Origin: an uncultured Anaerolineales bacterium
GTDB lineage: Bacteria > Chloroflexota > Anaerolineae > Anaerolineales > UBA11858
Reading direction: 5' to 3'
DNA length: 37,719 bases
Assembly: GCA_964544065.1 (NCBI GenBank)
Contig: CAZJBA010000004.1
Span: 1 to 37,719, forward strand
The notes below the pieces were generated by a model. That model had not been told where the DNA came from, ran no database searches, and worked only from the letters and a program-made list of their open reading frames with translations. Positions 19,506-35,556 of this stretch are shown here, piece by piece. A program made the position numbers and the translations under genes. How positions within the stretch are numbered: position 1 is the stretch's first letter; every line of letters begins with the position of its first letter.

Positions 19506-22500
19506 ATGAACGCAAACCACGCTGCAAAAACAAAATCACATACATCCACCCCCGTTGGAGCTGTCATGGTTGTCGGCGGCGGCATCGCCGGGATGCAGGC
19601 CTCGCTCGACCTGGCAGAACAGGGCTTCAAAGTCTACATGGTCGAAAAAGAGTCAGCCATCGGGGGAAAAATGGCACAACTGGATAAGACCTTTCCCACC
19701 AACGATTGCGCCATGTGTACCATCTCGCCAAAATTGGTCGAAACAGGGAGGCATCCGAACATCGATATTTTGACCAACAGTGAGGTGGTCGATATAACCG
19801 GTCAGGCGGGCAATTTTCGCGCCCAAGTGAACCAGCAACCCCGCTACGTTGACCTGGAAAAATGCGTGGCCTGCGGCGACTGCCTCGAGGTCTGCCCCGT
19901 AGAGGTGATCGACACCTTCAACGAAGGCTTGGTGGACCAACATGCCATCTACCAACACTACCCGCAAGCCGTCCCCAATGCCTTTGCGATCCAAAAACGC
20001 GGCATCGCCCCGTGCCGAGACGCCTGTCCGGCCAGTCAACGCGCCCAAGGGTATATCGCTCTGATTCGTGAAGGTCGTTGGGATGAAGCCTTACGGGTCA
20101 TCAAAATGGATAACCCCTTCCCCGGCATTTGCGGACGCATCTGCAATCATCGCTGCGAGGATGCCTGTAACCGGGGCGAAGTCGACGAAGCGATCAATAT
20201 CCGCGCCCTCAAGCGGTTCGTCACCGATAAAGTTTACCAAAACCCAAGAGAACCGGTTGAGCCGGTCGAGATCAAATACCCCGACAAACGCGTGGCCATC
20301 ATCGGGGCGGGACCGTGCGGACTGACCACGGCCCAAGACATCATTCGGGAAGGATACCCCGTCACCGTGTTCGAGGCCATGCCTGTTGCCGGTGGTATGC
20401 TGCGCCTGGGCGTGCCCGAATATCGCTTGCCCAACGAAATCATCGAACGTGAGGTCAACGACATCATCGACTTAGGGGTGGATTTACGCCTCAACCACCA
20501 AGTCGACGATCTCGATGAAATCTTCCAGGAAGGCTTCGAATCCGTGCTCATCGCGGTGGGGGCGCATGAGGGCATCCGTCTACCGATCCCTGGCGCCAAT
20601 CTTGATGGCGTCTTGATCAACACTCATTTCTTGAAAGACGTCCGCCTGGGCAATTATGAAGATGGGAACCGTGACGCCCCGCCTTTGGGCGAGCGAGTGC
20701 TGGTATTGGGGGGTGGCAACGTGGCCATCGACTGCGCTCGCAGCGCCGTCCGGTTGGGGCGTGAAGTGCACCTGGCCTGCCTGGAGGGCCGCGACGAAAT
20801 GCCCGCCCACGAGTGGGAGATCCAAGCAGCCAAAGAAGAGGGCGTCCACCTGCATCCAGGCCGCACCTTCGAGCGCATTCTCAGCAACCACGAAGACCAT
20901 GTTCAGGGCGTAGAATGCTCTCAGGTGGCCTCCTTCCATTTCGACGAGAGCGGCAACCTGCATCTGGAAAAAGAACCCGACTCAACCCATGTGCTCGATT
21001 GCGACACAGTGATCTTCTCGGTGGGGCAGCGGGCGGGTTTAGCTTTCATCCCTGACGACTCCGGGGTAGGATTGACCGACAAGCAAACCATTGCCATCAA
21101 TCCGAACACGTTTGCAACCAGTCGACCGGGCGTATTTGCCGCCGGAGACAGCGTCTCAGGAACGGCCTTCGTCATCGAGGCAGTCGCCAACGGCCATAAG
21201 GCGGCCCAATCGATCTTGCGTTATTTGAAAGGCCAACCCCTGGAGCCAGAGCCCGAACCCGAGCTCCCGGTCGTGAATCTGACTCAACAAGAGATTGACA
21301 ACCGCATCGAGCGAGGCGAGATCGAGCCGCAACCGCGCGTGCCCTTGCCGGAGCTTCCCGTTGATCAACGGGTGACCAACTTTGCTGAGGTGGAGGGTGG
21401 CTACGATGATGAAAGCGCCCAAGCCGAAGCTGCCCGCTGTTTGTCTTGCGGCATTTGCTCCGAGTGCTGGTCATGCGTGTTCGAGTGCGGCCGCGACGCG
21501 ATCATCCACACCGACACCGCAAAGCGGCATTCCCTCAACGTCGGAGCGGTTCTATTGGCGCCCGGCTACCAGATTTACAACGCCCATCTTTCCAGGGAAT
21601 TTGGGCTGGGCCGCTACCCCAACGTGATCACATCGCTTCAATATGAGCGTATGCTCTCGGCCAGCGGGCCAACCGGCGGGCACGCCCGGCGCCCATCCGA
21701 CCAAAAGAGCCCCAAACGAATCGCCTTCTTGCAGTGTGTCGGCAGCCGCGACCAGAGCCACGATTATTGCTCCTCGGTGTGCTGCATGTACGCGGCCAAA
21801 GAAGCGATCATGACCATCGAACACGCCAGAGCCGAGGCGCGTGATGGCAACGGCGACGGCGACGTTCAGTGCCAAGTTTTCTTCATGGACACACGCGCCT
21901 ACAGCAAAGGTTACGAGGAATACTATCATCGCGCCGAGGAAAAATACGGCGTCGAATACACCCGCTGCCGTTTGAGCGAAGTCAAAGAAGCGCCCGACTC
22001 GAATAATTTGATCGTGCGTTATGCAGCACCCTACGAAGGTCGAGATGAAATCCTCGAGAAAGAATTCGACCTGGTGGTTTTATCTGTTGGGATGGAAATT
22101 TCCGACTCGGTCAAAACGCTAGGGCAACAATTGGGGGTAGAACTCGACTCCTACGGCTTTTGCCACACCACCCTGTTTGACCCTCTCCAGACCAGCCGAC
22201 CAGGCATTTACGCGGCCGGCCCCTTCCGCGAACCAAAAGATATTCCCGAAACCGTCATGGAGGCCAGTGGAGCAGCCGCCAATGCGGCTCAATTATTGGC
22301 CCCCTCAAGACACACGCTGGCCGTGCAGCAAGAATATCCCCCAGAGCAAGATGTATCGGGACAAGAAGCCCGCATCGGTGTATTTGTGTGCCACTGCGGC
22401 AGCAACATCGGCGGCTACCTGGATGTCCCCAATGTGGCCGAATATGCCGCGTCCTTTCCCGGTGTGGTTCACGCAGAAGACAACCTGTATACCTGCTCGC

Positions 22501-24188
22501 AAGACACGATCGCGCACATCATCGAGCAAGTCCAGGAGCAGAACTTGAATCGGGTCGTGGTGGCCTCCTGCACGCCGATCACTCATGAACCCCTGTTCCA
22601 AGACGCCATCCGCCAAGCGGGTTTGAATCCCCACCTCTTCGAGATGGCCAACATCCGCAATCAATGTTCCTGGGTCCATTCAGACGAGTGGGACACAGCC
22701 ACCCAAAAAGCCAAATCGCTGGTGCGGATGAGCATCGCCCGTTCGGCGGAACTTGAATCACTGGAAATCTCGGAAGTGGAAGTCGAGCATGCCGCCCTGA
22801 TCATCGGCGGGGGCGCGGCCGGGATGGCCGCAGCGCTCAACCTGGCCAACCAGGGCTTCCCCGTCCACTTGGTCGAACGTGAAAACGAACTCGGCGGCAA
22901 CCTGCGGAAATTGCGCTATTTTGTCGATGAAAAAATTGTGCGCAAAGGCAACGGCGAGGGGTCTAGCTCGCAAACGCCTCGCCAGTATCTCGCTGCGACG
23001 GTTGAAAAAGTCAAGCAGCACCCCTTGATCACCACCCACTTGAACACGGAACTCGTCGACACGGACGGCTTCAAGGGCAACTTCACTTCCAAGCTTGACC
23101 AACAAGGGATAATTCACCAAATCCAACATGGCGTCATCATCGTCGCGACGGGCGGTGAAGAGTACAAAGGCAGCGAATATGGTTATGGCGACCATTCCCG
23201 CATCGTGACACAGTTGGAATTCGAGACCTTGCTGGCATCGCAAGAGGCCTATCAAGACCAGGCGCCAGCATCCACGCTGGCCGACTGTGTGCCCAACAAC
23301 GTCGTCATGATCCTGTGCGTTGGCCCGGCCGAAAAATATTGCAGCCGCATCTGCTGCACCACCGCGCTCAAAAACGCGCTCAAGCTCAAGGAACTAAACC
23401 CCGACGCCGAGATCACAATTCTTTATCACGACATTCGCACCTACGGATTCAAGGAACGCGTATATACGGAGGCGCGCCGCGCCGGGGTGCGATTCATCCA
23501 CTACAAGTTTGACAAAAAACCAAAAGTTGATGTCATGCCCACGCGGCGGGATCAGTCCTCCTTGATCACCGTAGATGTGTGGGAGCCGGTTCTGAAGCGG
23601 GAGATTCGCTTGAACCCCGACCTTCTGGTTCTCTCCACGCCGGTTGTTCCCGCCGATGGAACCCGAGAACTGGCGAGTCAGCTCAAGCTGTCCACCGACA
23701 TGGACGGCTTCTTCCTGGAAGCCCATGTCAAGCTGCGCCCGGTGGACTTCTCCGCTGATGGCGTCTTCATGGCAGGGATGGCCCACTATCCCAAATTCCT
23801 GGATGAGACCATTGCCCAGGCACAGGCCGCCGCTTCGCGAGCATCCCGGGTTCTGGCCCAAGAAACGATGATGACCAACGCCCGCGTCGCCCACGTTGAC
23901 CCAGAAAAATGTGTCGGCTGCCTGACCTGTGTGCGGCTCTGCCCCTATGACGTCCCCAAAGTGACGCTAGAGCACACCGGCGTTGGCGAAATCGGTGGAG
24001 CGGCCTACATTGAGCCGGCTGTCTGCCACGGCTGTGGCTCCTGCGCTTCGGAGTGCCCGGCCCAAGCCATCCAGTTGTTGCATTACAAAGACATACAAAC
24101 GCTACGCAAAGTTGATGCTTTGTTCACTCTCCCCACAACCAAAGAAAAAGAACCGGTTCCAACAAGCACCGGCAAAGAGACCAGATAA
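19506..24188 (+). CDS. Giant HdrA-like flavoprotein with an inserted GltD/NfnB-like NAD(P)H oxidoreductase module and a second HdrA-like module (HdrL-type), copy 1
   Basis: About 1560 aa from the ATG at 19506 (GGAG upstream); the track ORF opens earlier at 19410. Motifs in order: GGGIAGMQASLDLA, DKTFPTNDCAMC, CVACGDCLEVCP, the GltD-like block CRDACPASQRAQGYI...PFPGICGRICNHRCEDACNR, IIGAGPCGL, LGGGNVAIDCARSA, VFAAGD, CLSCGICSECWSCVFEC, the HdrA signature FLQCVGSRD..YCSSVCCMYA, VFVCHCGSNIGGY, a second GGGAAGMAAALNLA, YCSRICCT, and terminal CVGCLTCVRLCP / CHGCGSCASECP. Confidence 0.88.
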   Translation: MNANHAAKTKSHTSTPVGAVMVVGGGIAGMQASLDLAEQGFKVYMVEKESAIGGKMAQLDKTFPTNDCAMCTISPKLVETGRHPNIDILTNSEVVDITGQAGNFRAQVNQQPRYVDLEKCVACGDCLEVCPVEVIDTFNEGLVDQHAIYQHYPQAVPNAFAIQKRGIAPCRDACPASQRAQGYIALIREGRWDEALRVIKMDNPFPGICGRICNHRCEDACNRGEVDEAINIRALKRFVTDKVYQNPREPVEPVEIKYPDKRVAIIGAGPCGLTTAQDIIREGYPVTVFEAMPVAGGMLRLGVPEYRLPNEIIEREVNDIIDLGVDLRLNHQVDDLDEIFQEGFESVLIAVGAHEGIRLPIPGANLDGVLINTHFLKDVRLGNYEDGNRDAPPLGERVLVLGGGNVAIDCARSAVRLGREVHLACLEGRDEMPAHEWEIQAAKEEGVHLHPGRTFERILSNHEDHVQGVECSQVASFHFDESGNLHLEKEPDSTHVLDCDTVIFSVGQRAGLAFIPDDSGVGLTDKQTIAINPNTFATSRPGVFAAGDSVSGTAFVIEAVANGHKAAQSILRYLKGQPLEPEPEPELPVVNLTQQEIDNRIERGEIEPQPRVPLPELPVDQRVTNFAEVEGGYDDESAQAEAARCLSCGICSECWSCVFECGRDAIIHTDTAKRHSLNVGAVLLAPGYQIYNAHLSREFGLGRYPNVITSLQYERMLSASGPTGGHARRPSDQKSPKRIAFLQCVGSRDQSHDYCSSVCCMYAAKEAIMTIEHARAEARDGNGDGDVQCQVFFMDTRAYSKGYEEYYHRAEEKYGVEYTRCRLSEVKEAPDSNNLIVRYAAPYEGRDEILEKEFDLVVLSVGMEISDSVKTLGQQLGVELDSYGFCHTTLFDPLQTSRPGIYAAGPFREPKDIPETVMEASGAAANAAQLLAPSRHTLAVQQEYPPEQDVSGQEARIGVFVCHCGSNIGGYLDVPNVAEYAASFPGVVHAEDNLYTCSQDTIAHIIEQVQEQNLNRVVVASCTPITHEPLFQDAIRQAGLNPHLFEMANIRNQCSWVHSDEWDTATQKAKSLVRMSIARSAELESLEISEVEVEHAALIIGGGAAGMAAALNLANQGFPVHLVERENELGGNLRKLRYFVDEKIVRKGNGEGSSSQTPRQYLAATVEKVKQHPLITTHLNTELVDTDGFKGNFTSKLDQQGIIHQIQHGVIIVATGGEEYKGSEYGYGDHSRIVTQLEFETLLASQEAYQDQAPASTLADCVPNNVVMILCVGPAEKYCSRICCTTALKNALKLKELNPDAEITILYHDIRTYGFKERVYTEARRAGVRFIHYKFDKKPKVDVMPTRRDQSSLITVDVWEPVLKREIRLNPDLLVLSTPVVPADGTRELASQLKLSTDMDGFFLEAHVKLRPVDFSADGVFMAGMAHYPKFLDETIAQAQAAASRASRVLAQETMMTNARVAHVDPEKCVGCLTCVRLCPYDVPKVTLEHTGVGEIGGAAYIEPAVCHGCGSCASECPAQAIQLLHYKDIQTLRKVDALFTLPTTKEKEPVPTSTGKETR

Positions 24189-24219
24189 CGCCACCATCAA
24201 AACAGGATATGAAAACACC

Positions 24220-24669
24220 ATGACCAAGGACTTTAGCCCCGAAATCGTCGCTTTTTGCTGCCACTATTGCGCTTATGCAGCCGCTGACCTGGCCGGATCT
24301 ATGCGCTTAGAATATCCCCCCGCCATCAAGGTAATCAAATTGCCTTGCTCCGGCAAGGTCGACCCGCTCTATATCCTGCGGGCATTCGAGGACGGCGCCG
24401 ACGGCGTTCTCACGGCCGGTTGACTGCCGGGAGACTGTCATTACCTGGAAGGTAATCTACAAGCCCGCAGAAGAGTTGAATACGCTAGAAAGCTGATCGA
24501 AGAAATCGGCCTGGATGGCCGCCGACTTCAAATGATCAATGTATCTGCAGCCATGGGAGGCCAATTCGCTTTCTCCGTTGCAGAGATGACGGCAGAGATC
24601 AAACGGATGGGGCCCAGCCCTTTCCGAAAAAATGGAAAGGAACAACTTGGAGGAGGGCAGCATGAATGA
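24220..24669 (+). CDS. mvhD: MvhD/FlpD-family [2Fe-2S] electron-transfer subunit, predicted selenoprotein (in-frame TGA at 24421-24423 read as Sec, residue 68)
   Basis: N-terminus IVAFCCHYCAYAAADLAG...LPCSGKVD...FEDGADGVLTAG-TGA-LPGDCHYLEGN. The same frame stays open for 81 more codons to the TGA at 24667-24669. The TGA replaces the first Cys of the family motif G-C-x-x-G-D-C-H-Y-x-x-G-N. Confidence 0.8.
24421..24467 (+). promoter_or_regulatory. Candidate bacterial SECIS element downstream of the mvhD1 UGA
   Basis: Hairpin ATTACC (24440-24445), loop TGGAA, GGTAAT (24451-24456), starting 19 nt after the T of TGA. A possible lower stem is CGGG (24428-24431) / CCCG (24464-24467). The same hairpin occurs at the same offset in mvhD2. 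Confidence 0.55.
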
Positions 24670-25057
24670 GCAACCTTATATCTTGATTGTGGATGATGAT
24701 CCTGACATCCTGGATGGTATTTGCACCATCTTAGAAACGCAGGATTATCGTTTAGAGACAGCGCGGGATGGGGTCCAATGCCTCGAATTGCTCGGCGAAG
24801 AGAAACCCGATCTACTAATCTTGGACCTGCTGATGCCGCGTATGGATGGCTGGGGCGTGATCCGCGAAATGCGCAGCCAAGCCTGCTTTTCCGATGTTCC
24901 TGTTATGGTGCTGACCACTGTAGTGGAAGATGCCAGCCGACGCCGCTACGAACTGGAGACAGGCATGGCCATGGATGTGCAAGAATACATCGAAAAGCCA
25001 GCCCGTCCCGATAACCTACTGCGACACGTAGAGAATCTACTGCAATGGAAAAAGTAA
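24662..25057 (+). CDS. Stand-alone CheY-like response regulator receiver protein
   Basis: YILIVDDDPD, DLLILDLLMPRMDG, YIEKP, no output domain. The ATG at 24662 follows GGAGGAGGG and overlaps the mvhD1 stop (ATGAATGA). Confidence 0.85.
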   Translation: MNEQPYILIVDDDPDILDGICTILETQDYRLETARDGVQCLELLGEEKPDLLILDLLMPRMDGWGVIREMRSQACFSDVPVMVLTTVVEDASRRRYELETGMAMDVQEYIEKPARPDNLLRHVENLLQWKK

Positions 25058-26268
25058 CTGATACGCTTTCCGTCATCGCCGACCGCCTGGGTCGATCCGA
25101 AGTGTTCAACACACTTCCGGAAGATGATCTGCTGGAAATCGCGAAACTCTGCACCGAAAAGAGCTACCCAGACGACCGAACCATCTTCCAAGAAGGCAAG
25201 CCGTCAGAAAATTTCTTAGTTGTGGAACGCGGCAAGTTGGCGATCGAAAAGAAAATCCAGATCGGCAGACACTCCACACGGCGCAATGCAACGATTGCGT
25301 ATGTCGGCCCCAACCAAGTAGCCGGTTTTTCAACCATCGCTTCTCCCCACACGCATTCCGCCTCTGTTATGACCGTTGAGCCAACCCGCGTTCTTGAAAT
25401 CAACGGTCAACAATTACGCCAGTATTTATCGTCCCATCCGAAAGCAGGATATCAGGTCTCAATCCGCCTGCTCAACCTTGTAAGTGGCCGCTACCGCAGC
25501 GCCACGAATACGCTAACCTACTTCCTCTCGATCGTCTCGCACGAATTACGCTCACCGCTAGCAGCGATTGAAAACTATCTGCGCACAATTCTGGGCGGGT
25601 TTGCTGGCGACCTGAATGCCAAGCAAGAGCGGATGATGAAACGCTGCATCCTGAGAGTCACCGATCTTTCAGCTTTGATCAGCAATGTCGTCGATTTGGC
25701 CCGCATGCGCCCGGAGCAAATCCAGGCTGACTTCGAGTGGTTTGACCCGGCGGAAGTGGGCATGGAATCAATCGATGACGCTCGCTTGGCCGCCTCGGAA
25801 AAGGGCGTCGAACTCAACATTGAGCCGCCCCCCAACTTCGAGCCCATCATTGGCGCACGGCGACGCATGCGCCAGGTTTTCACCAACCTGTTGACTAACG
25901 CGATCAAGTTCGCCCCCGAAGAATCAACCGTGACATTCCGGGCCTGGTACGAGCCAGAAGAATTAATTTTCGAAGTCGAAGACCAGGGCCCTGGCATCCC
26001 TCCCAACGAATTGCCCCACATTTTCAAGGATTTCTTTCGGGGCAGCAATGTCAAAGGGTCAGCGGGGACGGGCCTAGGCCTCTCGATTACCAAGAAAATT
26101 ATGGATGCCCATGAAGGTGACATCGTCGTCAAGAACGTCTACGATGACGAAGGCGAGATTAGCGGCACCCGCTTCACGGTTCATATTCCGCGCGATCTGA
26201 AAACCCCTGAGATGCGTAGACAAGCCTGGAGAACAGAGGGCGAAGCCGAAATGGGAGCTAACTTTTAG
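25045..26268 (+). CDS. Soluble histidine kinase with an N-terminal Crp/cNMP-binding-like sensor domain
   Basis: The N-terminal ~140 aa resemble a cyclic-nucleotide-binding beta-barrel (FQEGKPSENFLVVERGKLAI). Followed by H-box SIVSHELRSPL and an HATPase_c domain (DQGPGI, GTGLGLSI). No hydrophobic helices. Overlaps the receiver gene by 13 nt. Confidence 0.82.
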   Translation: MEKVTDTLSVIADRLGRSEVFNTLPEDDLLEIAKLCTEKSYPDDRTIFQEGKPSENFLVVERGKLAIEKKIQIGRHSTRRNATIAYVGPNQVAGFSTIASPHTHSASVMTVEPTRVLEINGQQLRQYLSSHPKAGYQVSIRLLNLVSGRYRSATNTLTYFLSIVSHELRSPLAAIENYLRTILGGFAGDLNAKQERMMKRCILRVTDLSALISNVVDLARMRPEQIQADFEWFDPAEVGMESIDDARLAASEKGVELNIEPPPNFEPIIGARRRMRQVFTNLLTNAIKFAPEESTVTFRAWYEPEELIFEVEDQGPGIPPNELPHIFKDFFRGSNVKGSAGTGLGLSITKKIMDAHEGDIVVKNVYDDEGEISGTRFTVHIPRDLKTPEMRRQAWRTEGEAEMGANF

Positions 26269-26287
26269 AAAGAAACCTTATGCAACT

Positions 26288-29200: not shown

Positions 29201-30853
29201 GTGGAACACGCTGAAGAGAATCTCTACACCTGTTCACAAGATAGCATCAAACACATCACGGAGACGGTCAAAGAGGAAAACCTTAATCGAGTCGTGGTCG
29301 CAAGTTGCACGCCCCTGACCCACGCGCCTCTCTTTCAGGACAGCATCAGAGCAGCAGGCTTAAACCCTTATCTGTTTGAAATGGCCAACATCCGCAATCA
29401 GTGTTCGTGGGTACACTCACACGATTGGGATACGGCCACCGAAAAAGCTCAAGAGTTAGTTCACATGGCTGTCGCCCGTTCTGCGCTGCTAAACGCACAA
29501 CCCACCATCGATGTGCCAGTCGAAAACGAAGCCCTCGTGGTCGGAGGCGGAGTCGCCGGGATGACCGCGGCGCTGACCCTGGCAGAAAACGGCTTCCCCG
29601 TCCACCTGGTCGAGAAAGAGGCGCAACTAGGGGGGCATCTCCGTGACATCCACACCTTACACGATAACCGAGATGCACAACAAGTCTTACGAAAGATGTT
29701 CGAGCAGGTAGAAAGCCAGACTGACATCCACGTCCATTTAGAGAGCACTGTGCAAGATGTAAAAGGCTTCCGAGGCAATTTCAGCAGCACAATAGAAAGC
29801 GCTGACGGACAAACCATCCAGGTCTCTCACGGAGCAACCATCTTGGCTACCGGCGCGCAAGAATACCGCGGCGAAGAATACGGTTACGGCCAATCCGACC
29901 AGATCATAACCCAGCAAGAACTTGAGGCCATCCTTGGGGGGCAGAAAGCCTACCCGACTCAAGAACCACCGGACACCGTCGTCATGATTCAGTGCATTGG
30001 GCCAGCCGAACAGTATTGCAGCCGAATTTGTTGCACCGTAGCCTTAAAGAACGCCCTGAAGCTCAAAGAACAACATCCCGACACCAAAGTCATCATTTTA
30101 TATAAAGATATGCGCGTATACGGATTTAAAGAACGTCTCTACAGCCAAGCTCGCCAAAAAGGAATTCTATTTTTACGCTATAATAAAACCAAGCCCAAGG
30201 TTGAAAGCATCCCTGCTTCAACGACCTCAACCGATAAATCCGCTTCCTTACGCATCCAAGCCTGGGACCCTTCTCTTGAAAGGACTCTTGAACTTCCAAC
30301 AGATTTACTCGTTCTTTCCATGCCGGTAGTGCCTAACCCCGACACCAAGGAGTTGGCCAACTGCTTTAAAGTTTCCACGGATGCTGATGGATTCTTCATG
30401 GAAGCCCATGTCAAGTTGCGTCCCGTCGATTTTGCCACCGAGGGCGTTTTCATGGCCGGGATGGCCCACTACCCAAAGCTGGTTGATGAAGCCATGATTC
30501 AGGCCCAGGCAGCGGCTTCTCGTGCCGCGCGGCTGCTCAGCAAGAAAACCTCAAAAGTCGGGGGGCGCGTGGCTGTGGTGGAACCAGAGCTGTGTACCGG
30601 CTGCTTAACCTGTGTGCGAGCATGCCCCTTCGACGTGCCCTTGATCAAGGCCGACTTGGTGGGCATCGGAAACATTCAAGGCGCAGCCTATATTGAAGCG
30701 GCTATCTGCCAGGGTTGTGGCTCGTGCGCGGCCGCATGTCCAGCCCAGGCCATCCAGTTGATGCACTACACCGATGCGCAAATGGCAGCAAAAGTCAGCA
30801 TCCTGGCGAAACCAAAGATACCAGCCATGAAATCAGAAGAAGTTGGAGCCTAG
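26288..30853 (+). CDS. Giant HdrA-like / GltD-NfnB-like / HdrA-like fusion flavoprotein (HdrL-type), copy 2
   Basis: 1521 aa, collinear with copy 1, all motif blocks conserved (GGGIAGMQASLDLA, CVACNDCAEVCP, PFPGICGRICNHRCEEACNR, IIGAGPCGL, CLACGICSECMSCVFEC, FLQCVGSRD..YCSSVCCMYA, VFVCHCGSNIGGY, GGGVAGMTAALTLA, YCSRICCT, CTGCLTCVRACP, CQGCGSCAAACP). Confidence 0.88.
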   Translation: MKSKVSSPRSIHTDKSTTPVGAAMVVGGGIAGMQASLDLADQGFKVYLVEKQSAIGGKMAQLDKTFPTNDCAMCTISPKLVETGRHPNIEILTNTEVLEVSGDKGNFTVRLRQEPRYIEVDQCVACNDCAEVCPVIIPDPFNEALNSRHAAYKQYPQAVPNAYAIQKAGVAPCRDGCPAGQRAQGYIALIREGRWEDALRVIKMDNPFPGICGRICNHRCEEACNRAKLDEPINIRALKRFVTDKVYEKPRQPLEPVEINHPDKRVAIIGAGPCGLTAAQDIIRNGYPVTVFEALPVAGGMLRVGVPEYRLPSEIVEREVRDIVDLGVDLQLNHRVDDFDEIFDQGYTAVLIAVGAHEGVRPPIPGANQDGVLVSTTFLRDVRISDPPALGERVVVVGAGDVAMDVARTAVRLGSEVHIFYRRRREDATADEQEIQHAQEEGVVFHFQTNIKEIIGDSDGLLKGITCFKTEPGTPDKSGRPKPVPVPESETFFPCENVIFAVGQRAGLAFIPDDAGVGITDQQTIAINPNTFAATREGVFAAGDSISGTSFVIDAVASGHTAAQSMIRYLQAKHLEPPRKPNLPVVELSQKEIDEKLARGEVKRQPRVPIPELAADQRVNSFEEVSRGYDEESARAEAARCLACGICSECMSCVFECGRDAIDHDMVAKEKEVNAGAIILAPGYQTYQAELSEEFGFGRYPNVVTSMQFERLLSASGPTMGTIQRPSDDETPRRIAFLQCVGSRDQEHDYCSSVCCMYATKESVVAKEHDPDLDIHVFLMDMRAFSKGYLRYFQRAQDDYGIHYHHCRISDLHETSDEHDLILRYTPEENPNQLVAQEFDLVVLSVGMEMSESVQTLGRQLGVSLDEYGFCSTPQFNPVESSRAGIYAVGPFREPKDIPEAVMEASGASGAVGALLGSSRHSLTTIPEFPPERDISEEEPRIGVFVCHCGSNIGGYLDVPKVADYAASLPHVEHAEENLYTCSQDSIKHITETVKEENLNRVVVASCTPLTHAPLFQDSIRAAGLNPYLFEMANIRNQCSWVHSHDWDTATEKAQELVHMAVARSALLNAQPTIDVPVENEALVVGGGVAGMTAALTLAENGFPVHLVEKEAQLGGHLRDIHTLHDNRDAQQVLRKMFEQVESQTDIHVHLESTVQDVKGFRGNFSSTIESADGQTIQVSHGATILATGAQEYRGEEYGYGQSDQIITQQELEAILGGQKAYPTQEPPDTVVMIQCIGPAEQYCSRICCTVALKNALKLKEQHPDTKVIILYKDMRVYGFKERLYSQARQKGILFLRYNKTKPKVESIPASTTSTDKSASLRIQAWDPSLERTLELPTDLLVLSMPVVPNPDTKELANCFKVSTDADGFFMEAHVKLRPVDFATEGVFMAGMAHYPKLVDEAMIQAQAAASRAARLLSKKTSKVGGRVAVVEPELCTGCLTCVRACPFDVPLIKADLVGIGNIQGAAYIEAAICQGCGSCAAACPAQAIQLMHYTDAQMAAKVSILAKPKIPAMKSEEVGA

Positions 30854-30856
30854 CGT

Positions 30857-31270
30857 ATGTCCAAGAAGAAACTCCGCATCGTCGCTTATTGTTGTGAGCA
30901 TTGCGCTTACGCCGCGGCCGATCTGGCCGGAGGCTTGCGCATGCAATACCCGCCGGAGACCAGAATTGTGCAAATACCCTGCACCGGCAGACTGGATACG
31001 CTCATGGTCTTGCAAGCGTTCGAAGATGGCGTTGACGGCGTCATGGTGGCAGGTTGACTGCCCGGAGACTGCCATTACCTGGATGGTAATGTGAAAGCGA
31101 AACAACGAGTTGAAAGGATTCAGCAATTGCTCGCTCAAATTGGTTTAGCGCCAGAGCGAGTGGAGATGTTCAATCTTTCCTCAGCGATGGCAGGTAAATT
31201 CGTCGCTGTAACAGAAGAAATGACAGAAACAATTACCCGATTGGGGCCCAACCCCCTCAAAGATTCTTGA
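30857..31270 (+). CDS. mvhD: MvhD/FlpD-family subunit, copy 2, predicted selenoprotein (in-frame TGA at 31055-31057 read as Sec, residue 67)
   Basis: IVAYCCEHCAYAAADLAG...IPCTGRLD...FEDGVDGVMVAG-TGA-LPGDCHYLDGN. The same frame continues for 70 codons to the TGA at 31268-31270. Confidence 0.8.
31055..31091 (+). promoter_or_regulatory. Candidate bacterial SECIS element downstream of the mvhD2 UGA
   Basis: Hairpin CATTACC (31073-31079), loop TGGAT, GGTAATG (31085-31091). The ATTACC arm starts 19 nt after the T of TGA, as in copy 1. Confidence 0.55.
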
Positions 31271-31294
31271 AATTTAGTAGCATCGGAGGTCACT

Positions 31295-31984
31295 ATGATC
31301 ATTGCAGAAAGAAAGGATTTAGATGAAATCAGATCACTCATCGGGGAGGATGCCGAAAAGGTGCTCGTGGTTGGATGCGGCACCTGTGTGACGGTGTGCT
31401 TTGCCGGCGGCTCGCGCGAGGCGCAAATCACAGCCAGTTCGCTGCGCATGGCAACCAAACTCGATGATGAAGAGGGCAATGGCCTGGATGTCACCGACGT
31501 GACGGTCCAGCGCCAGTGCGAATGGGAATACCTGGACGAAATCGAAGACCAGGTCGCGGAAGCCGATGTCGTGCTGTCGCTGGGGTGTGGTATCGGTGTC
31601 CAAGCCATTGCCGAATATTTTCCCGAATGCTGGGTTGTCCCCGGACTGAACACCACCTTCTTGGGGCTGCCCTCCGAGCAAGGCATCTGGGAAGAGCGTT
31701 GCGCCGCCTGTGGAGACTGTGTACTGGGGATCACCGGCGGGATTTGTCCGATCGCCCGCTGCTCCAAGTCCCTGCTCAACGGCCCTTGCGGTGGATCAGA
31801 AGACGGCCATTGTGAAATTGACCCTGAGGTCCCCTGCGCCTGGCAATTAATATACGACCGCATGAGCAGCAAAGGGCGACTTGACATGCTGATCACGTTA
31901 CAAGCGCCGAAAAACTGGAGTACGTCTCGTGATGGCGGCCCGCGCAAAATTGTGCGGGAAGACCTATTCCTAGAAGAAGCATAG
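31295..31984 (+). CDS. metV: MetV-like small subunit of methylene-THF reductase (MTHFR C-terminal-type Cys-rich domain)
   Basis: 229 aa. VVGCGTCVTVC, then CAACGDCVLGITGGICPIARCSKSLLNGPCGGSEDGHCEIDPEVPCAW. Sits directly upstream of metF, as in acetogens. GGAGG Shine-Dalgarno. Confidence 0.82.
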   Translation: MIIAERKDLDEIRSLIGEDAEKVLVVGCGTCVTVCFAGGSREAQITASSLRMATKLDDEEGNGLDVTDVTVQRQCEWEYLDEIEDQVAEADVVLSLGCGIGVQAIAEYFPECWVVPGLNTTFLGLPSEQGIWEERCAACGDCVLGITGGICPIARCSKSLLNGPCGGSEDGHCEIDPEVPCAWQLIYDRMSSKGRLDMLITLQAPKNWSTSRDGGPRKIVREDLFLEEA

Positions 31985-32003
31985 CCCCAAAGTGGAGGAA
32001 AAC

Positions 32004-33035
32004 ATGACAGCAATCGAAAACAATACCAACGGCTACCTCGTCGGTTCCAATCTGGAAAAAATGCTTGAAGCTGGACACTTTGCCGTAACCGGAGAATTAG
32101 GCCCACCTCAGAGCGCCGATGGAGAAGTCATCCGTGAAAAAGCCACCCTTCTGAAAGGGTTCGTCGATGGCATCAACATCACCGACAATCAAACCGCGAT
32201 CGTGCGGATGTCCAGCATTGGAGCAGGCACCATCGTCGTGGAGGAGGGCCTCGAACCGATCATCCAGATGACCTGCCGGGACCGCAATCGGCTGGCGATC
32301 CAAAGCGATCTATTGGGCGCTTACGCGCTCGGCATGCGCAACCTGCTTTGCCTGAGCGGCGACCATCAACATTTCGGCAACCATCCCACCTCGAAGAACG
32401 TCTTCGATATCGATTCGCTCCAAATGGTGAAGATGGTGGCCGATATGCGCGATGATTGCATCTTTCAATGCGGGGACACCTTTAAGGGCATCGAGCCGCG
32501 CTTCTTTGTCGGCGCCGCTTCCGCCCCCTTTGCTGACCCGATCGACTTTCGTCCTTATCGGTTAGCCAAAAAAGTCAAAGCCGGGGCCGATTTCATTCAG
32601 ACTCAATTGGTCTACGATGTGGAGGCTTTCGAAGAATTCATGCAGAAAGTGCGCGAACTTGGGCTTCACGAGCAAACCTACATCATGGCCGGGGTCGGCC
32701 CGCTCAAGAGCGCTGGAATGGCCCGGTACATGAAAAATAACGTCCCCGGTATCCTTGTGCCTGACGAGATCATCGAACGGATGAAAGCAGTTGACAAACC
32801 TTGGGCGGGCAAGAGCAAAGATGAAATGACCAAAGACGATAAACGCGCTCGCTCGAAAGCCCGCAAAGAGGAAGGCATTCAAGTCTGCATCGACCTAATC
32901 AATCAATTAAGAGAGATTGAAGGCGTCGCCGGTGTCCATATCATGGCGATCGAATGGGAAGAAGCAGTCAAGCCTATCGTAGAAGGCGCGGGCTTGCACC
33001 CGCGACCAACACTAAAAGAGAAAGTCGCGGCATAG
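32004..33035 (+). CDS. metF: Methylenetetrahydrofolate reductase catalytic subunit (acetogen-type MetF)
   Basis: TIM-barrel MTHFR motifs (VTGELGPP, INITDNQTA, QMTCRDRN, NLLCLSGDH, FFVGAA, ADFIQTQLVYD). The ATG at 32004 follows GGAGGA; the track GTG at 31992 lies within the Shine-Dalgarno. Confidence 0.88.
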   Translation: MTAIENNTNGYLVGSNLEKMLEAGHFAVTGELGPPQSADGEVIREKATLLKGFVDGINITDNQTAIVRMSSIGAGTIVVEEGLEPIIQMTCRDRNRLAIQSDLLGAYALGMRNLLCLSGDHQHFGNHPTSKNVFDIDSLQMVKMVADMRDDCIFQCGDTFKGIEPRFFVGAASAPFADPIDFRPYRLAKKVKAGADFIQTQLVYDVEAFEEFMQKVRELGLHEQTYIMAGVGPLKSAGMARYMKNNVPGILVPDEIIERMKAVDKPWAGKSKDEMTKDDKRARSKARKEEGIQVCIDLINQLREIEGVAGVHIMAIEWEEAVKPIVEGAGLHPRPTLKEKVAA

Positions 33036-33091
33036 CGGCACTACTTTGCTCAAACAGTCCATCACCCCACAACACAAAACTGGAGAAAGCT

Positions 33092-34522
33092 ATGGACGAA
33101 CAACAAACAAGCACGAAATCCATCAAAATCAAAGGAGACCTGGCAAAACGGGTAAAAGAAGAAATCGATCAAAATGTCTATTTGTGCTACCAGTGTGTCA
33201 AGTGCACCAGTGGATGTCCCGTGGCTGATTTCTTCGATTGGCAACCTAACCAAGTTATGCGCGCCCTTCAATTAGGGCAAGAGGATATCGCTCTGGAGGC
33301 CAAAACCCCTTGGCTATGCGCAGCTTGCCAAACCTGTACCACTCGCTGCCCGCAAGGGTTGGATATCAACGCCATCATGGAATTTCTGACCCGTGAAGCG
33401 GTCGAACAGGGCATAAAACCCCCCATCCCTGAAGTTAACGCCTTCAATCGCGCCTTCATGCGCGAGGTCAACATCTGGGGTCGTAGCTATGAACCGGGTT
33501 TGATGGCCGAGATGGGAATTCAAGATCCTCTCGCCATGGTGGAAGACCTTGACCTGTACTTCAACATGCTCAAGAAAGGCAAGGTCAGCTTCTTCCCCAA
33601 ACCGGCGCGCCTACCCAACTCTCGCAAGATCAAACCAATCGAAGGCGCCGAGGAGGCCATCGCTTACTACCCTGGCTGCTCGCTCGAATCAACCGCGACG
33701 GAATTTCATCATTCGACCGAAGCCGTTTGCGAAGCCATTGGCCTGAAATTGATTGAACCGCCCGGATGGGTTTGCTGTGGAAGTTCCGCTGCCCATAAAA
33801 TCGCTCCGGAAGCAGCTTTGCGGCTCCCGATGGAGAACCTTGCCTACTTCGAGCGCAGCGGGTTCAAGGAAGTCACCATGCCTTGCGCGGCTTGCTTCAA
33901 CCGCCACAAAGCAGCTCAATTCGAGATCCGCGAGTACGAAGACCATAAAGCTGCCATGGATGAAGCACTTGGATACGATTACCAAGACAGCGTCCACGTC
34001 AGCACATTGGCTGAGGCGATCCACAACCACATTGGGCCCGAGCGCGTGGCCGAGAAAGTCCAAAACCAGCTTGAAAACTTGAATGTGGTCAGCTATTACG
34101 GCTGTCTATTGACCCGACCTCCCGAGGTCACGGAAGCAGCCCACCACGAAAATCCCACCGACATGGACGAACTCATGGCCGCTCTGGGCGCTCAGGTTCA
34201 CGATTGGTCTTACAAGACGACCTGTTGCGGGGCTGCCCACTCCCTAACTCGACCTGACATTGTATTAGACCTGAGCGGCAACATCATCAGACACGCCAGG
34301 GAAGCTGGCGCTGATGTCATCGCCGTCGCCTGCCCGCTTTGCCACATGAATCTGGATGCCCGCCAAATCCAAATGGACCTGGAAGACCCTATGCCCATTC
34401 TCTACTTCACCCAGTTGATGGCCCTGGCATTAGGACTTCCCAAGAAAGCTGCCTTGCTACACAAGAACATCATTGATCCACGTCCACTTCTGCGAAGAAA
34501 GGAAATCATCTCTCCTGACTAA
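33092..34522 (+). CDS. HdrC-HdrB fusion protein (two [4Fe-4S] ferredoxin motifs plus two CCG domains)
   Basis: HdrC part: CYQCVKCTSGCP and CAACQTCTTRCP. HdrB part: two Cys-rich CCG repeats (YYPGC...WVCCGSS...CAAC and YYGC...TCCGAA...CPLC). The ATG at 33092 is preferred over the track start at 32954, which overlaps metF. Confidence 0.85.
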   Translation: MDEQQTSTKSIKIKGDLAKRVKEEIDQNVYLCYQCVKCTSGCPVADFFDWQPNQVMRALQLGQEDIALEAKTPWLCAACQTCTTRCPQGLDINAIMEFLTREAVEQGIKPPIPEVNAFNRAFMREVNIWGRSYEPGLMAEMGIQDPLAMVEDLDLYFNMLKKGKVSFFPKPARLPNSRKIKPIEGAEEAIAYYPGCSLESTATEFHHSTEAVCEAIGLKLIEPPGWVCCGSSAAHKIAPEAALRLPMENLAYFERSGFKEVTMPCAACFNRHKAAQFEIREYEDHKAAMDEALGYDYQDSVHVSTLAEAIHNHIGPERVAEKVQNQLENLNVVSYYGCLLTRPPEVTEAAHHENPTDMDELMAALGAQVHDWSYKTTCCGAAHSLTRPDIVLDLSGNIIRHAREAGADVIAVACPLCHMNLDARQIQMDLEDPMPILYFTQLMALALGLPKKAALLHKNIIDPRPLLRRKEIISPD

Positions 34523-34548
34523 ACCACGAGAGAAGAAAGGAGCCTTCC

Positions 34549-35109
34549 ATGATGACCGCCGCTCCTCCATCTCCAGAAAAGATTGACCCTGTAACCTTTC
34601 TCGACACCACACTTGAGAAAACATGGCACGCTCTTTGCAACCACTTCGATGTCATCGCCAAAATGCCTGATAGTCAAATTCTCTTTTGTAAAGTCGATGC
34701 AAGCATGCCGCATCAAGCTGCCGAAAGAGTGTTTGTCAACATGATCACAGAATCGATTGAGCATGTAGGCCGATTCTCGCCCTGGTACACGCAACCGGCG
34801 CGTAAGTTTGGCATCATCTCAATTTGTGACGAACAAACCAATTGCCGCAAATGGATCTTAGCACCGGAGTCTCTACGTCAGTGGAAGGACGAATTAAAAA
34901 ACCTTCGTTTGGCCATTGAAAAGAATTCTGGCCTGATTCAAGCCAGCCTACTCCTGGATCAACTCAGCATGAAAGAGCTTAGCAAGGGTTCCCAAATAAC
35001 GGCCAAGTGTGAATGCTGCCCGCCAAAGCTAATTCAAATCAAAAAAGAAATTTTGGATCAATCGGCGATCACATGTGACGCCTGCCAATGCTCGTTTATC
35101 CCGATATAA
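34549..35109 (+). CDS. Hypothetical Cys-rich protein, last gene of the hdr/met operon
   Basis: 186 aa. AAGGAG lies 6 nt upstream of the ATG. I recognise no family. C-terminal cluster CECCPPK-x20-CDACQC. Visibly more AT-rich than its neighbours. Confidence 0.6.
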   Translation: MMTAAPPSPEKIDPVTFLDTTLEKTWHALCNHFDVIAKMPDSQILFCKVDASMPHQAAERVFVNMITESIEHVGRFSPWYTQPARKFGIISICDEQTNCRKWILAPESLRQWKDELKNLRLAIEKNSGLIQASLLLDQLSMKELSKGSQITAKCECCPPKLIQIKKEILDQSAITCDACQCSFIPI

Positions 35110-35484: not shown

Positions 35485-35556
35485 TGAAAATATAACAAGA
35501 TCAAACTCACACAATCATTCCAGCCCACCAACAGGCAATAAAGGAGCAAAGCATAG

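Follow-up and report, generated by a model that had tools for sequence, protein, structure and literature searches.

A ten-gene Anaerolineales operon with two HdrL-MvhD(Sec) modules beside metVF and hdrCB, read as a probable Hdr-linked methylene-THF reductase

Layout of the operon and its flanking signals

In the window, by which we mean the whole stretch of DNA that was analysed (37,719 nucleotides, an entire contig of an uncultured Anaerolineales bacterium), ten tightly packed genes lie on the + strand between positions 19506 and 35109, in the order hdrL1, mvhD1(Sec), response regulator, histidine kinase, hdrL2, mvhD2(Sec), metV, metF, hdrCB and orf10 (Table 1). The original prediction had given this gene map with spacings of 31, -8, -13, 19, 3, 24, 19, 56 and 26 nt, which is reproduced exactly here. 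The spacings as stated require that mvhD1 ends at 24669 and that the response regulator starts at ATG 24662, the Shine-Dalgarno sequence of which is GGAGGAGGG; Shine-Dalgarno-like sequences are present at all ten gene starts. The operon also holds genes that are not for enzymes, namely a signalling pair (two of the ten) and one conserved protein without an assigned function. It is noted that the title of the original prediction passes over genes 3, 4 and 10. On the whole 37.7 kb contig neither acs, fhs and folD nor any tRNA is found.

Table 1. Positions of the genes and signals of the operon in the window
Feature	Position	Strand	Remarks
sigma-70-like promoter	18963..18991	+	TTGACA-17-TACAAT, extended TG; 11/12 match in scan
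structured leader RNA	19031..19168	+	P1 CUGAAC(C)...GGUUCAG, then AGGGCC; P2 GC-rich 12-15 bp hairpin at ~19113-19152
hdrL1	19506..24188	+	1560-aa tandem HdrA fusion with NfnB/GltD-like insert; motif CLE, predicted NADH-type
mvhD1 (FlpD family)	24220..24669	+	Pfam FlpD E=1e-48; Sec TGA 24421-24423; SECIS-like hairpin 24440-24456
response regulator, receiver domain alone	24662..25057	+	131 aa; Pfam Response_reg only; start by Shine-Dalgarno and -8 overlap
cytoplasmic histidine kinase	25045..26268	+	Pfam cNMP_binding (N-terminal), HisKA and HATPase_c
hdrL2	26288..30853	+	1521-aa tandem HdrA fusion with NfnB/GltD-like insert; motif YRR, predicted NADPH-type
mvhD2 (FlpD family)	30857..31270	+	Pfam FlpD; Sec TGA 31055-31057; SECIS-like hairpin 31074-31090
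metV	31295..31984	+	229 aa; PF12225 E=8e-37 (DUF5981/MTHFR_C), NGPCGG motif
metF	32004..33035	+	343 aa, methylene-THF reductase catalytic subunit; Pfam MTHFR (PF02219) E=5e-40
hdrCB fusion	33092..34522	+	476 aa; HdrC-type 2 x CxxCxxCxxxCP, then HdrB-type 2 x CCG
orf10	34549..35109	+	186 aa, conserved; RFSPWY motif; invariant C154, C156, C176, C179
intrinsic-terminator-like hairpin	35324..35349	+	10 bp stem, 7 GC pairs, T-rich tail; top-listed in 18800-35700

A promoter-like site before the genes and a terminator-like hairpin after them had likewise been claimed, and both turn out to be the top-scoring + strand sites of their kind in a scan of 18800-35700. In the closest relative, locus L037, both promoter hexamers are identical and the spacer has otherwise diverged, and in 12 of 13 related loci the pattern TTGACA-N17-TA[CA]AAT occurs 35-45 nt 5' of the leader motif. 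Weaker promoter-like or terminator-like sites (9/12) are no commoner than in shuffled sequence, and for this reason the weak internal ones are left uninterpreted. The next promoter-like site 3' of the terminator-like hairpin lies at 35444-35471.

The structured leader RNA has a fold z-score of -3.6. The covariance model R1 detects it in 13 genome loci and also in 9 metagenome contigs, always on the same strand as, and 5' of, the first hdr gene. Between the GGUUCAG motif and the start of hdr there are 190-423 nt in those genome loci where this was measured, and about 230-340 nt in contigs from metagenomes. In the leader alignment 90% of the cells are paired and 10 pairs are changed on both sides, which was reached by none of 500 shuffles. 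Rfam gives no match in the whole window at gathering thresholds and, in 18880-19520 at E<=10, one chance-level match only (E=4.8). Note also that 17 of the 26 exact-pattern metagenome matches of the leader have no HdrL nearby, with full-model scores of at most 26 bits or below the E=0.01 reporting limit, and these are taken as chance. The leader RNA may act as a regulatory element; the conserved promoter together with a structured leader that has no Rfam family is a new point of the present work.

Encoded proteins and the two HdrL paralogues

In both mvhD genes the in-frame TGA stands in the context AG-U-LPGDCHY, where it aligns to the Cys of GCxxGDCHY in solved MvhD (GCHFGDCHY in 7bkb_F). Across homologous mvhD copies this codon position is TGA in 88, window included, and Cys (TGC/TGT) in 7. 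The SECIS-like hairpin AUUACC-N5-GGUAAU, of 6-7 bp and 19 nt after the UGA, is the same in all 87 distinct sequences, synonymous sites included, and it thus shows no covariation, because the sequence never varies. The claim of Sec in both MvhD proteins is borne out by a UGA aligned to Cys of homologues and by the SECIS-like stem-loop.

MetV has orthologues of 62-92% identity directly 5' of metF in related loci and no match in the PDB sequence search, while MetF has distant matches only among the solved single-subunit MTHFRs; in the PDB copy searched there is no solved MetFV-Hdr complex. Residues 13-113 of HdrCB match HdrC and residues 190-469 match HdrB of solved Hdr, with both CX(n)CCGX(m)CXXC motifs intact, so that the claimed fusion of HdrC and HdrB is supported by these matches as well as by Pfam. 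Wherever a locus has two HdrL modules, the response regulator stands between them, and the histidine kinase is the regulator's conserved partner in related loci. The last gene, orf10, has no Pfam or NCBIfam family; its 17 database homologues are without assigned names, and it stands 3' of hdrCB in at least 20 related loci. An AlphaFold2 model of the orf10 protein (pLDDT 86), compared with the PDB by Foldseek, gave no fold match below E=0.03, and a MarR-like assignment was rejected, having insignificant matches only (E>=0.03, TM<0.3).

The original prediction described genes 1 and 5 as giant HdrA-type paralogs that carry a GltD/NfnB-like NAD(P)H module, and Pfam (HdrA-like plus Fer4_20/Pyr_redox_2) and the mapping onto PDB sequences both agree with this. 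In the domain map, which was made by PDB sequence search on HdrL2 and not on HdrL1, residues 22-167 and 647-864 match HdrA 145-511, residues 170-654 match NfnB, GltD and StnC, residues 938-1096 match HdrA 2-160 and residues 1320-1502 match HdrA 468-645; the inserted module matches NfnB/NfnL with E of about 1e-80 to 1e-88. HdrL1 has four GxGxxG/A dinucleotide-binding motifs and ferredoxin-type Cys motifs. For HdrL the only NCBIfam model above its cut-off is the generic PRK12771 'NAD(P)-binding protein', with the HdrA/HdrA2 models being below theirs. On these matches, unit 1 of HdrL is a predicted HdrA-like FAD unit with its inserted-ferredoxin domain interrupted by a complete NfnB/GltD-like module, for which FAD, an NAD(P)H site and two [4Fe-4S] clusters are predicted, and the fused unit 2 is again HdrA-like by prediction, with an N-terminal cluster domain and a C-terminal ferredoxin domain. 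HdrL as a tandem HdrA fusion with an NfnB-like insert is a new point of the present work.

So is the motif difference between the two copies. After the second Rossmann strand, HdrL2 has the YRR motif (FYRRRR), its VHIFYRRRRED falling on the YRR of each of the five PDB homologues in the alignment, whereas HdrL1 (ACLEGR, in VHLACLEGRDE) has CLE at the position of the NfnB-family YRR; nowhere else do the paralogues diverge as far over 50 residues (18% identity). Besides the window, the motif differs between the copies in 17 of 17 two-HdrL loci with both copies readable, and the best 120 database homologues comprise 29 with YRR and 87 with CLE. A third class, LDR, is present at other loci and carries no predicted specificity. 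Related loci mostly have a single HdrL, which is CLE-type, and still keep metVF-hdrCB. In T. maritima NfnB the YRR binds the 2'-phosphate of NADPH, and it was shown kinetically that YRR separates the NADP(H)-specific DsrL-2 from the NAD(H)-using DsrL-1 (PMC7596348). By analogy HdrL1 probably uses NADH and HdrL2 probably uses NADPH, an assignment resting on three residues whose role is taken from NfnB and DsrL.

It was originally proposed that the two hdrL genes arose by a fairly recent duplication or were homogenised by gene conversion; the two hdrL-mvhD pairs would then be expected to be functionally redundant. Identical runs of 23 nt (19695-19717 versus 26486-26508) and 26 nt (20136/26927) and local stretches with about 80% nucleotide identity point in this direction. 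The runs, however, encode invariant protein motifs (TFPTNDCAMC, RICNHRCE), and while the 23-nt run of the original prediction does exist, the pair 19665-19745 versus 26447-26527 given with it is misaligned by 9 nt and, taken literally, has only 29 matches in 81. The paralogues have 64% amino-acid identity overall, only 470 of their 974 identical residues share the same codon, the third-codon-position identity is 0.2-0.6 in every 50-codon window and never above 0.6, and no tract with saturated synonymous identity, as for gene conversion, is found between hdrL1 and hdrL2. In a neighbour-joining tree, which has no support values, each copy belongs to a different clade, and both clades also hold copies from other Chloroflexota loci. 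Moreover, L037 runs collinear to the window (75-89% nucleotide identity) except that window positions 24639-31257 are missing from it, and with them the 6.6 kb cassette of response regulator, histidine kinase, hdrL2 and mvhD2, and in every two-HdrL locus two-component genes lie between the HdrL genes. With the difference at the nucleotide-specificity motif in addition, a recent and redundant duplication is highly improbable: the HdrL paralogues are old.

The proposed enzyme and its alternatives

No redox step in the Wood-Ljungdahl pathway is more exergonic than methylene-THF reduction, and how this reaction is coupled decides whether there is a net gain of energy from acetogenesis or from the oxidation of acetate and methyl groups. 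The physiological acceptor of the Hdr-linked (6S) enzyme has been sought since 2014.

That the gene set corresponds to the parts list of a MetFV-HdrABC-MvhD type methylene-THF reductase, as first suggested, agrees with the Pfam and PDB-sequence matches. As in the 6S kind, metV (PF12225, with NGPCGG) lies directly 5' of metF (PF02219) at a 19-nt spacing, and hdrA/B/C-type genes and mvhD share the strand of metFV, no two neighbours being more than 56 nt apart, HdrC and HdrB being fused and the HdrA type occurring twice. Among the relatives (548 matching stretches among species-representative genomes, with record titles that include groundwater, fen and lake metagenome bins), about 80 Chloroflexota loci retain the order hdrL-mvhD-metV-metF-hdrCB, with identities of 50-92%, and 25 of them have Wood-Ljungdahl genes no more than 10 kb away, with acsD-acsC-RACo-acsE upstream or DUF3786-cooC downstream; the link to metVF, for which a synteny check had been proposed, is thus upheld. 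Because the metVF-hdrCB synteny is conserved, often beside acsCDE/RACo/cooC, the Moorella-type (6S) Hdr-linked MTHFR is the best reading. We consider it fairly likely, though by no means assured, that the operon encodes a soluble multi-flavin Fe-S methylene-THF reductase of the Moorella '6S' kind with the two HdrL-MvhD pairs as alternative inputs.

In our model, the catalytic core MetF-MetV would be joined to the fused HdrCB, to Sec-MvhD and to the HdrA-type flavoprotein HdrL. NAD(P)H would be oxidised at the NfnB-like flavin, and Fe-S clusters would relay the electrons to an HdrA flavin. The HdrA flavin would then split the electrons, with one running downhill to methylene-THF (E0' about -200 mV) by way of HdrCB, MetV and the MetF flavin and the other going uphill to a low-potential acceptor such as ferredoxin; the reverse direction would permit methyl-THF oxidation. 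The two HdrL-MvhD pairs, being old paralogues, would be alternative input modules of different nicotinamide specificity, with HdrL2 presumably gained or lost as the 6.6 kb cassette together with the receiver-only regulator and the cNMP-domain kinase, which probably govern its use. Transcription would proceed from the conserved promoter through the conserved structured leader RNA.

By contrast, it could be proposed that HdrL-MvhD(-HdrCB) makes up at least one oxidoreductase of its own that is linked to NAD(P)H, such as an NAD(P)H:ferredoxin reductase or an NAD(P)H:disulfide reductase with some thiol carrier as substrate, that MetFV is an ordinary ferredoxin-dependent 2S MTHFR, and that the genes adjoin only through co-regulation with C1 metabolism. 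This would be consistent with HdrB keeping both CCG motifs, which build disulfide-reducing clusters in methanogens, with HdrL standing beside other genes in sulfate reducers, namely dsrABC in Desulfobacterium and hdrABC in Syntrophobacter, and with 2S MetFV enzymes working on ferredoxin alone. Against this proposal, metVF is kept between hdr genes across Chloroflexota loci at identities down to ~50%, and the six homologous proteins co-purify in Moorella (PMC8515935, PMC8578096). We regard this explanation as unlikely.

The other proposal, to which we give an equally low probability, is that both HdrL-MvhD pairs sit in one supercomplex, where NADH would enter via HdrL1 and NADP+ would be reduced via HdrL2, giving a folate-driven transhydrogenase (2 NADH + CH2-THF + NADP+ -> 2 NAD+ + CH3-THF + NADPH) in which the exergonic methylene-THF reduction would drive the second electron pair to NADP+. 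Consistent with this are the YRR motif, at which the copies differ wherever both could be read in a two-HdrL locus, and the translational packing of the copies in one operon. It is also noted that Sewell et al., in the passages on their cluster, speculated that NADP may be the low-potential acceptor, feeding an NADP-dependent FolD (PMC5736913), and that the second acceptor of the Moorella enzyme is not ferredoxin (PMC8515935, PMC8578096). On the other hand, most related loci have a single CLE-type HdrL yet keep metVF-hdrCB, and L037 is without HdrL2, so that NADP+ is not needed for the basic reaction; moreover, the regulators that accompany the second module agree better with its being used conditionally than with an obligate role as a subunit. 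Quite unlikely, in our estimate, is the combined case that the NADH-type and NADPH-type HdrL act jointly on one MetFV-HdrCB core with NADP+ being reduced and that the operon is switched by the leader RNA and a cNMP-sensing two-component pair. If it is true, NADP+ would be the second acceptor that has long been looked for in Hdr-type methylene-THF reductases, the complex would be a new bifurcating transhydrogenase, and the leader RNA would be a regulator not described before.

Returning to the reading with alternative inputs, we note that Anaerolineae are among the most abundant bacteria of subsurface sediments and anaerobic digesters, and that the cluster is present in hundreds of Anaerolineae species-level genomes and is common in Chloroflexota. 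Two nicotinamide modules with different residues at a validated specificity motif, together with the natural variants that have one module or two, provide a directly testable handle, and the promoter, the leader RNA and the embedded signalling pair offer an entry to the regulation of C1 flux in an uncultured group.

Comparison with known systems

The statement of the original prediction that no characterised example of this arrangement is known holds biochemically; the cluster itself, however, has been published for marine Anaerolineae. In the relevant passages, Sewell, Kaster and Spormann (2017) described an hdrA-mvhD-metVF-hdrCB cluster in DscP3, An-B22 and SM23_63, with a two-component system inside and a second, divergent metVF nearby, gave 54.5% identity between the Anaerolineae MetF_1 and Moorella MetF, and read the cluster as a Moorella-type bifurcating MTHFR (PMC5736913). 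The phylum and class, the gene set and the hdrC-hdrB fusion of that cluster, as given there, are those of the window. In these passages the large subunit is simply HdrA, with no mention of the tandem-HdrA/NfnB architecture, two HdrL modules, the YRR difference, Sec in MvhD, the cassette structure or the leader RNA, and the cluster is called unique to marine Chloroflexi (PMC5736913), whereas the relatives found here include, by their record titles, groundwater, fen and lake bins.

The Moorella thermoacetica 6S enzyme (Mock et al. 2014) resembles that of the window in that MetF, MetV, MvhD and HdrA-type, HdrB and HdrC proteins are encoded together. The window differs in having HdrCB as one protein and Sec in MvhD. 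It further differs in having two HdrA-type subunits of >1500 aa, regulators and an extra conserved protein. The isolated Moorella HdrA, in the work of Mock and co-workers, is said to have bound 2 FAD, so that it may also carry an extra flavin module. The built-in pyridine-nucleotide entry, which had been listed as a further difference, is not one: Moorella HdrA, which is co-transcribed and co-purified with MetFV, oxidises NADH, and for the complex bifurcation was proposed but never demonstrated, with ferredoxin not being reduced (PMC8515935, PMC8578096).

The HdrL proteins of Desulfobacterium autotrophicum and Syntrophobacter fumaroxidans, beside which several MvhD are selenoproteins (Strittmatter et al. 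2009; Sedano-Nunez et al. 2018), are likened to those of the window by description, being large soluble HdrA/GltD-like fusions with an NAD(P)H site that are always followed by mvhD. In the window, too, HdrA domains and a GltD-like module are in one polypeptide with mvhD 31 nt or 3 nt downstream, as in the HdrL definition of Strittmatter (2009). The sulfate-reducer HdrL, however, is tied to dsrABC or hdrABC and to sulfate reduction, not to metVF, and some contain Sec, which those of the window do not. The HdrA-NfnB fusions of ANME-1 (HdrA9-11; Chadwick et al. 2022) are archaeal and not adjacent to metVF, and the passage on them does not describe tandem HdrA fusions. Finally, NfnAB and DsrL share with the HdrL insert the YRR/non-YRR dichotomy setting NADPH versus NADH use, but NfnB and DsrL are free-standing subunits with NfnA and DsrAB as partners, whereas the HdrL module is embedded inside HdrA.

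Gene content of the operon and architecture of HdrL

With the ORF list, the translations and inspection of the start sites, the ten plus-strand genes proposed in the original prediction are reproduced with their spacings of 31, −8, −13, 19, 3, 24, 19, 56 and 26 nt, the match requiring that mvhD1 end at TGA 24667-24669 and that the gene of the receiver-only response regulator (RR) start at ATG 24662. A Shine-Dalgarno-like sequence lies ahead of all ten starts. The promoter-like and terminator-like flanks also hold, as the best-scoring sites (18963-18991, 11/12, and the hairpin 35324-35349) bracket the operon; weaker sites turn up no more often than they do when the sequence is shuffled. In the reading of the operon as duplicated HdrL-MvhD modules feeding a MetV-MetF-HdrCB methylene-THF reductase, the enzyme parts are borne out by Pfam, and RR, the histidine kinase with a cNMP domain (HK) and the tenth gene (orf10) had been left out.

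Features of the operon region (window positions) and pieces of HdrL2 (residues) with their matches
Feature	Position	Strand	Content or match
hdrL1	19506-24188	+	1560 aa; HdrA-like + Fer4_20/Pyr_redox_2 (Pfam)
mvhD1	24220-24669	+	FlpD family (Pfam), Sec
RR	24662-25057	+	response regulator, receiver domain only (Pfam)
HK	25045-26268	+	histidine kinase, cNMP-binding domain N-terminal (Pfam)
hdrL2	26288-30853	+	1521 aa; HdrA-like + Fer4_20/Pyr_redox_2 (Pfam)
mvhD2	30857-31270	+	FlpD family (Pfam), Sec
metV	31295-31984	+	DUF5981 (Pfam)
metF	32004-33035	+	MTHFR (Pfam)
hdrCB	33092-34522	+	HdrC + HdrB fused; ferredoxin motifs + two CCG domains (Pfam)
orf10	34549-35109	+	product of no Pfam family
Second promoter-like site	35444-35471	+	after terminator, ahead of 521-aa fusion gene
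HdrL2 piece	22-167		HdrA 145-290 (PDB sequence search)
HdrL2 piece	170-654		NfnB/NfnL, GltD, StnC (E 1e-80 to 1e-104, PDB sequence search)
HdrL2 piece	647-864		HdrA 293-511 (PDB sequence search)
HdrL2 piece	938-1096		HdrA 2-160 (PDB sequence search)
HdrL2 piece	1320-1502		HdrA 468-645 (PDB sequence search)

In the domain map, obtained with HdrL2 as the query and with its pieces placed on methanogen HdrA, the pieces match HdrA in such a way that HdrL is therefore two HdrA-like units covalently joined. The first unit is without the N- and C-terminal domains and carries the whole NfnB-like flavoprotein within its inserted-ferredoxin domain, the N-terminal cluster domain and the C-terminal ferredoxin domain coming from the second unit. 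HdrL has four dinucleotide-binding motifs (two HdrA-type FAD, one NfnB-type FAD, one NAD(P)H) besides ferredoxin-type Cys motifs, and an internal direct repeat, 70% identical, coincides with both FAD motifs. A search of NCBIfam gave no curated family covering HdrL.

In each mvhD gene an in-frame TGA lies within the motif AG-U-LPGDCHY, aligned with a Cys of GCHFGDCHY in solved MvhD; when the window is counted together with the related loci, 88 copies have TGA at this codon and 7 have TGC/TGT. The hairpin AUUACC-N5-GGUAAU, 19 nt 3' of the TGA, is invariant in 87/87 distinct sequences, at synonymous positions too, and looks as a SECIS element would. In four of the seven Cys variants, His-Phe replaces His-Tyr at the codons making the 5' arm of the hairpin. 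Sec in MvhD-type proteins has a precedent in Desulfobacterium (Strittmatter et al. 2009).

The product of orf10 belongs to a conserved unannotated family that has the motif RFSPWY and, towards the C-terminus, four invariant cysteines (CxC...CxxC), and in at least 20 related loci its gene stands after hdrCB; its AlphaFold2 model is confident (pLDDT 86) and, as a query, found no significant fold match in the PDB. Beyond the terminator lies a second methylene-THF reductase gene (35557-37122, +), whose 521-aa product joins a MetV half (the C-terminal DUF5981 domain; 47% identity with MetV) to a MetF domain sharing 41% identity with the MetF of the operon. Similar fusion genes flank the cluster in the related loci L022, L036, L065, L074 and L082, and Sewell et al. 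2017 (PMC5736913) also report a second metVF in marine Anaerolineae.

Note also that the window carries, at 118-2122 (+), two adjoining response regulators, paralogues of 330 and 334 aa whose output domains are of the HD-GYP type (HD_5), and, at 6847-9416 (+), a compact chaperone cluster of three HSP20 small heat-shock genes in a row followed by a DnaJ-family gene. Its sole long minus-strand gene (15198-16793) encodes a B12-binding radical SAM protein with DUF4070.

Origin and nucleotide motif of the second HdrL module

The two hdrL genes had been read as consistent with a fairly recent duplication or gene conversion, and four observations argue against this. First, HdrL1 and HdrL2 have 64% amino-acid identity (974/1512 aligned residues). 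Second, the same codon is used at just 470 of these 974 identical residues, with the third-position identity being 0.2-0.6 across all 50-codon windows. The identical runs of 23 nt and 26 nt are stretches coding for invariant motifs, and the pairing of 19665-19745 with 26447-26527 made before is 9 nt out of register. Third, in a neighbour-joining tree of 98 HdrL sequences, built without support values, HdrL1 groups with HdrLs that are upstream or single copies in other genomes and HdrL2 with those of L003, L004, L005 and L006, a further set of downstream HdrLs forming a separate deep clade. Fourth, the closest related locus, L037 (75-89% nucleotide identity; MetV and MetF 92% identical), has no second module: it is collinear with the window at 10518-24638 and 31258-32832, and its MvhD1-type gene leads directly into the same metV ribosome-binding site. 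The missing stretch, 24639-31257 (compared with L037 14776-14805), runs from the 3' end of mvhD1 to a point immediately ahead of that ribosome-binding site. As this gap covers exactly RR-HK-hdrL2-mvhD2, the second module is a 6.6 kb cassette gained or lost and no fresh duplicate; the difference points to gain of the cassette, or to its loss via recombination between both mvhD genes.

The conservation between the two proteins is lowest (a window of 18% identity) in the NAD(P)-binding subdomain. In T. maritima NfnB, Y310-R311-R312 bind the 2'-phosphate of NADPH, and for the NfnB-like DsrL kinetic measurements gave NADP(H) only for YRR enzymes and NAD(H) for non-YRR enzymes (PMC7596348). HdrL2 has VHIFYRRRRED, which lines up with YRR in five aligned PDB homologues (9n5u_A, 5jca_L, 9bov_A, 8oh5_C and 5vj7_A), and HdrL1 has VHLACLEGRDE at this position. 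Among the 98 HdrLs, the CLE type is found in all upstream copies and in all single copies but that of L005, the contig of which begins just ~330 nt ahead of hdrL so that its context is unseen; the downstream copies are of the YRR type (window, L003, L006, L059 and L076) or of a third type, LDR. The HdrL of L004, on a contig cut upstream of the gene, is also YRR-type. The copies differ at the motif in all two-HdrL loci with both readable (n = 17, plus the window), and the best 120 database homologues include 29 YRR-type and 87 CLE-type sequences.

From this motif we infer that one of the two HdrL modules probably serves for the entry (or exit) of NADH electrons and the other for those of NADPH. 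The same pair of motifs could also be read as both modules working in one supercomplex, which would then be a folate-driven NADH-to-NADP+ transhydrogenase, but we consider this improbable and prefer to see the two as alternative input modules.

Leader RNA and genomic surroundings

Directly before the operon promoter, and after the minus-strand radical SAM gene, stands a pair of genes for a HisKA_3 kinase and a LuxR-type regulator (17000-18884). The spacer between the LuxR-type gene and hdrL1 has diverged from that of L037 save for the promoter hexamers, which are identical, and a conserved block of ~140 nt. This leader block (19031-19168, +) folds into two hairpins (fold z-score −3.6), P1 being CUGAAC(C)/GGUUCAG followed by AGGGCC and P2 a GC-rich stem with a weak U-tract after it. 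A covariance model built from five loci matches 13 of 81 genome loci, each time on the same strand and ahead of the cluster's first hdr gene, with a TTGACA-N17-TA[CA]AAT promoter 35-45 nt upstream of the leader in 12 of the 13; the distance from GGUUCAG to the hdr start is 190-423 nt in the five loci measured. When metagenomes were scanned with a 20-nt leader seed, 26 contigs matched. Nine of them reach 41-110 bits under the full model, each with a same-strand hdrL ~230-340 nt downstream; the other 17 lack any hdr gene and get no more than 26 bits or stay under the E=0.01 reporting limit. Over 21 leader sequences, 90% of cells are paired and 10 pairs have changed on both sides, which no shuffle equals, the alignment being fitted to the model and the counts thus biased towards structure. 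An Rfam search of the window and the leader region gave no matching family. We regard the leader as a candidate cis-regulatory element, riboswitch or attenuator. A contig-end tandem array of GGTTCAGAGGTTCA-like units in L024 (17779-17976) gave spurious seed matches and bears no relation to the leader motif.

The database relatives of HdrL2 at 65-76% identity number in the thousands, the named ones coming from Chloroflexi or Anaerolineae metagenome bins. The complete genomes CP070811.1 and CBDCER010000003.1 are among the carriers of the cluster. Scanning species-representative genomes for HdrL gave 548 matching stretches, the best 80 of which are nearly all from Chloroflexota (Anaerolineales, Aggregatilineales, Promineifilaceae, Thermoflexales, Ardenticatenia and Caldilineae). 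In the synteny check put forward earlier, hdrL-mvhD next to metVF recurs in relatives, and tblastn with the proteins of the window gives three layouts. In the commonest, A, a ~1050-aa tandem HdrA without the NfnB insert is followed by MvhD-HdrL-MvhD-MetV-MetF-HdrCB, often with orf10 after; B, that of the window, is HdrL-MvhD-RR-HK-HdrL-MvhD-MetV-MetF-HdrCB, with an HK-RR-RR variant; and C combines A and B. Wherever a locus holds two full HdrL genes, two-component genes lie between them, and the HdrL-MvhD-HdrL-MvhD order without such genes occurs in none of the related loci compared. The ~1050-aa tandem HdrA opens most related clusters, with its own more divergent MvhD (e.g. L008 8183-11269 and L016 8210-11278); as an input module it would be of a third kind, without a nicotinamide site, and it is not in the window.

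The cluster adjoins acsD-acsC-RACo-acsE (upstream) or DUF3786-cooC (downstream) in 25 loci, and these neighbours tie it to the Wood-Ljungdahl methyl branch in the relatives; hypFCDE adjoin it upstream in seven loci. The window, a complete contig, has no acs, DUF3786-cooC or hyp neighbour genes. It is noted that in L015, L016, L019, L020, L030, L038, L069, L071 and others the upstream block runs acsD-acsC-RACo-acsE-malic enzyme-thioredoxin-reductase-like gene and the downstream one DUF3786-cooC-cooC, the malic enzyme and thioredoxin-reductase-like genes being unexplained companions of the acs block.

Proposed electron path and comparison with known systems

What is said here of function in the operon is what we infer. 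With methanogen Hdr and the Moorella enzyme as guides, the NfnB-like FAD would take electrons from NAD(P)H and an HdrA FAD would receive them and split them into two branches. One would lead by way of HdrCB and MetV to MetF and methylene-THF, the other to a low-potential acceptor; run backwards, the path could allow methyl-THF oxidation. In the Moorella enzyme HdrA oxidises NADH and the six proteins co-purify, with no ferredoxin reduction and with bifurcation never shown (PMC8515935, PMC8578096). The alternative that the Hdr-type oxidoreductases are independent of MetFV, with co-regulation as the sole tie, seems to us doubtful, and the path that ends at MetF is preferred. The proposed dual-nucleotide design offers a direct experimental approach to how Hdr-type methylene-THF reductases are coupled.

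In the literature searched we found neither the tandem-HdrA/NfnB architecture in a metVF-hdr context, nor a systematic YRR versus non-YRR difference of co-encoded modules, nor a mobile RR-HK-HdrL-MvhD cassette, nor the spread of the cluster beyond marine lineages, nor the leader RNA or orf10. The gene set itself is no surprise to the specialist. By both sequence-level criteria tested, the cluster is in the gene-content class of the Moorella-type (6S) MetFV-HdrABC-MvhD methylene-THF reductase. It had been stated that no characterised example of the arrangement was known; the arrangement is published, since the marine Anaerolineae cluster of Sewell et al. 2017 (PMC5736913) is essentially the same, and therefore it is not new. 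The name HdrL was first given to HdrA/GltD fusions of Desulfobacterium with mvhD downstream of them (Strittmatter et al. 2009), and for ANME-1 HdrA9-11 Chadwick et al. 2022 describe the same type of NfnB insertion as in HdrL.
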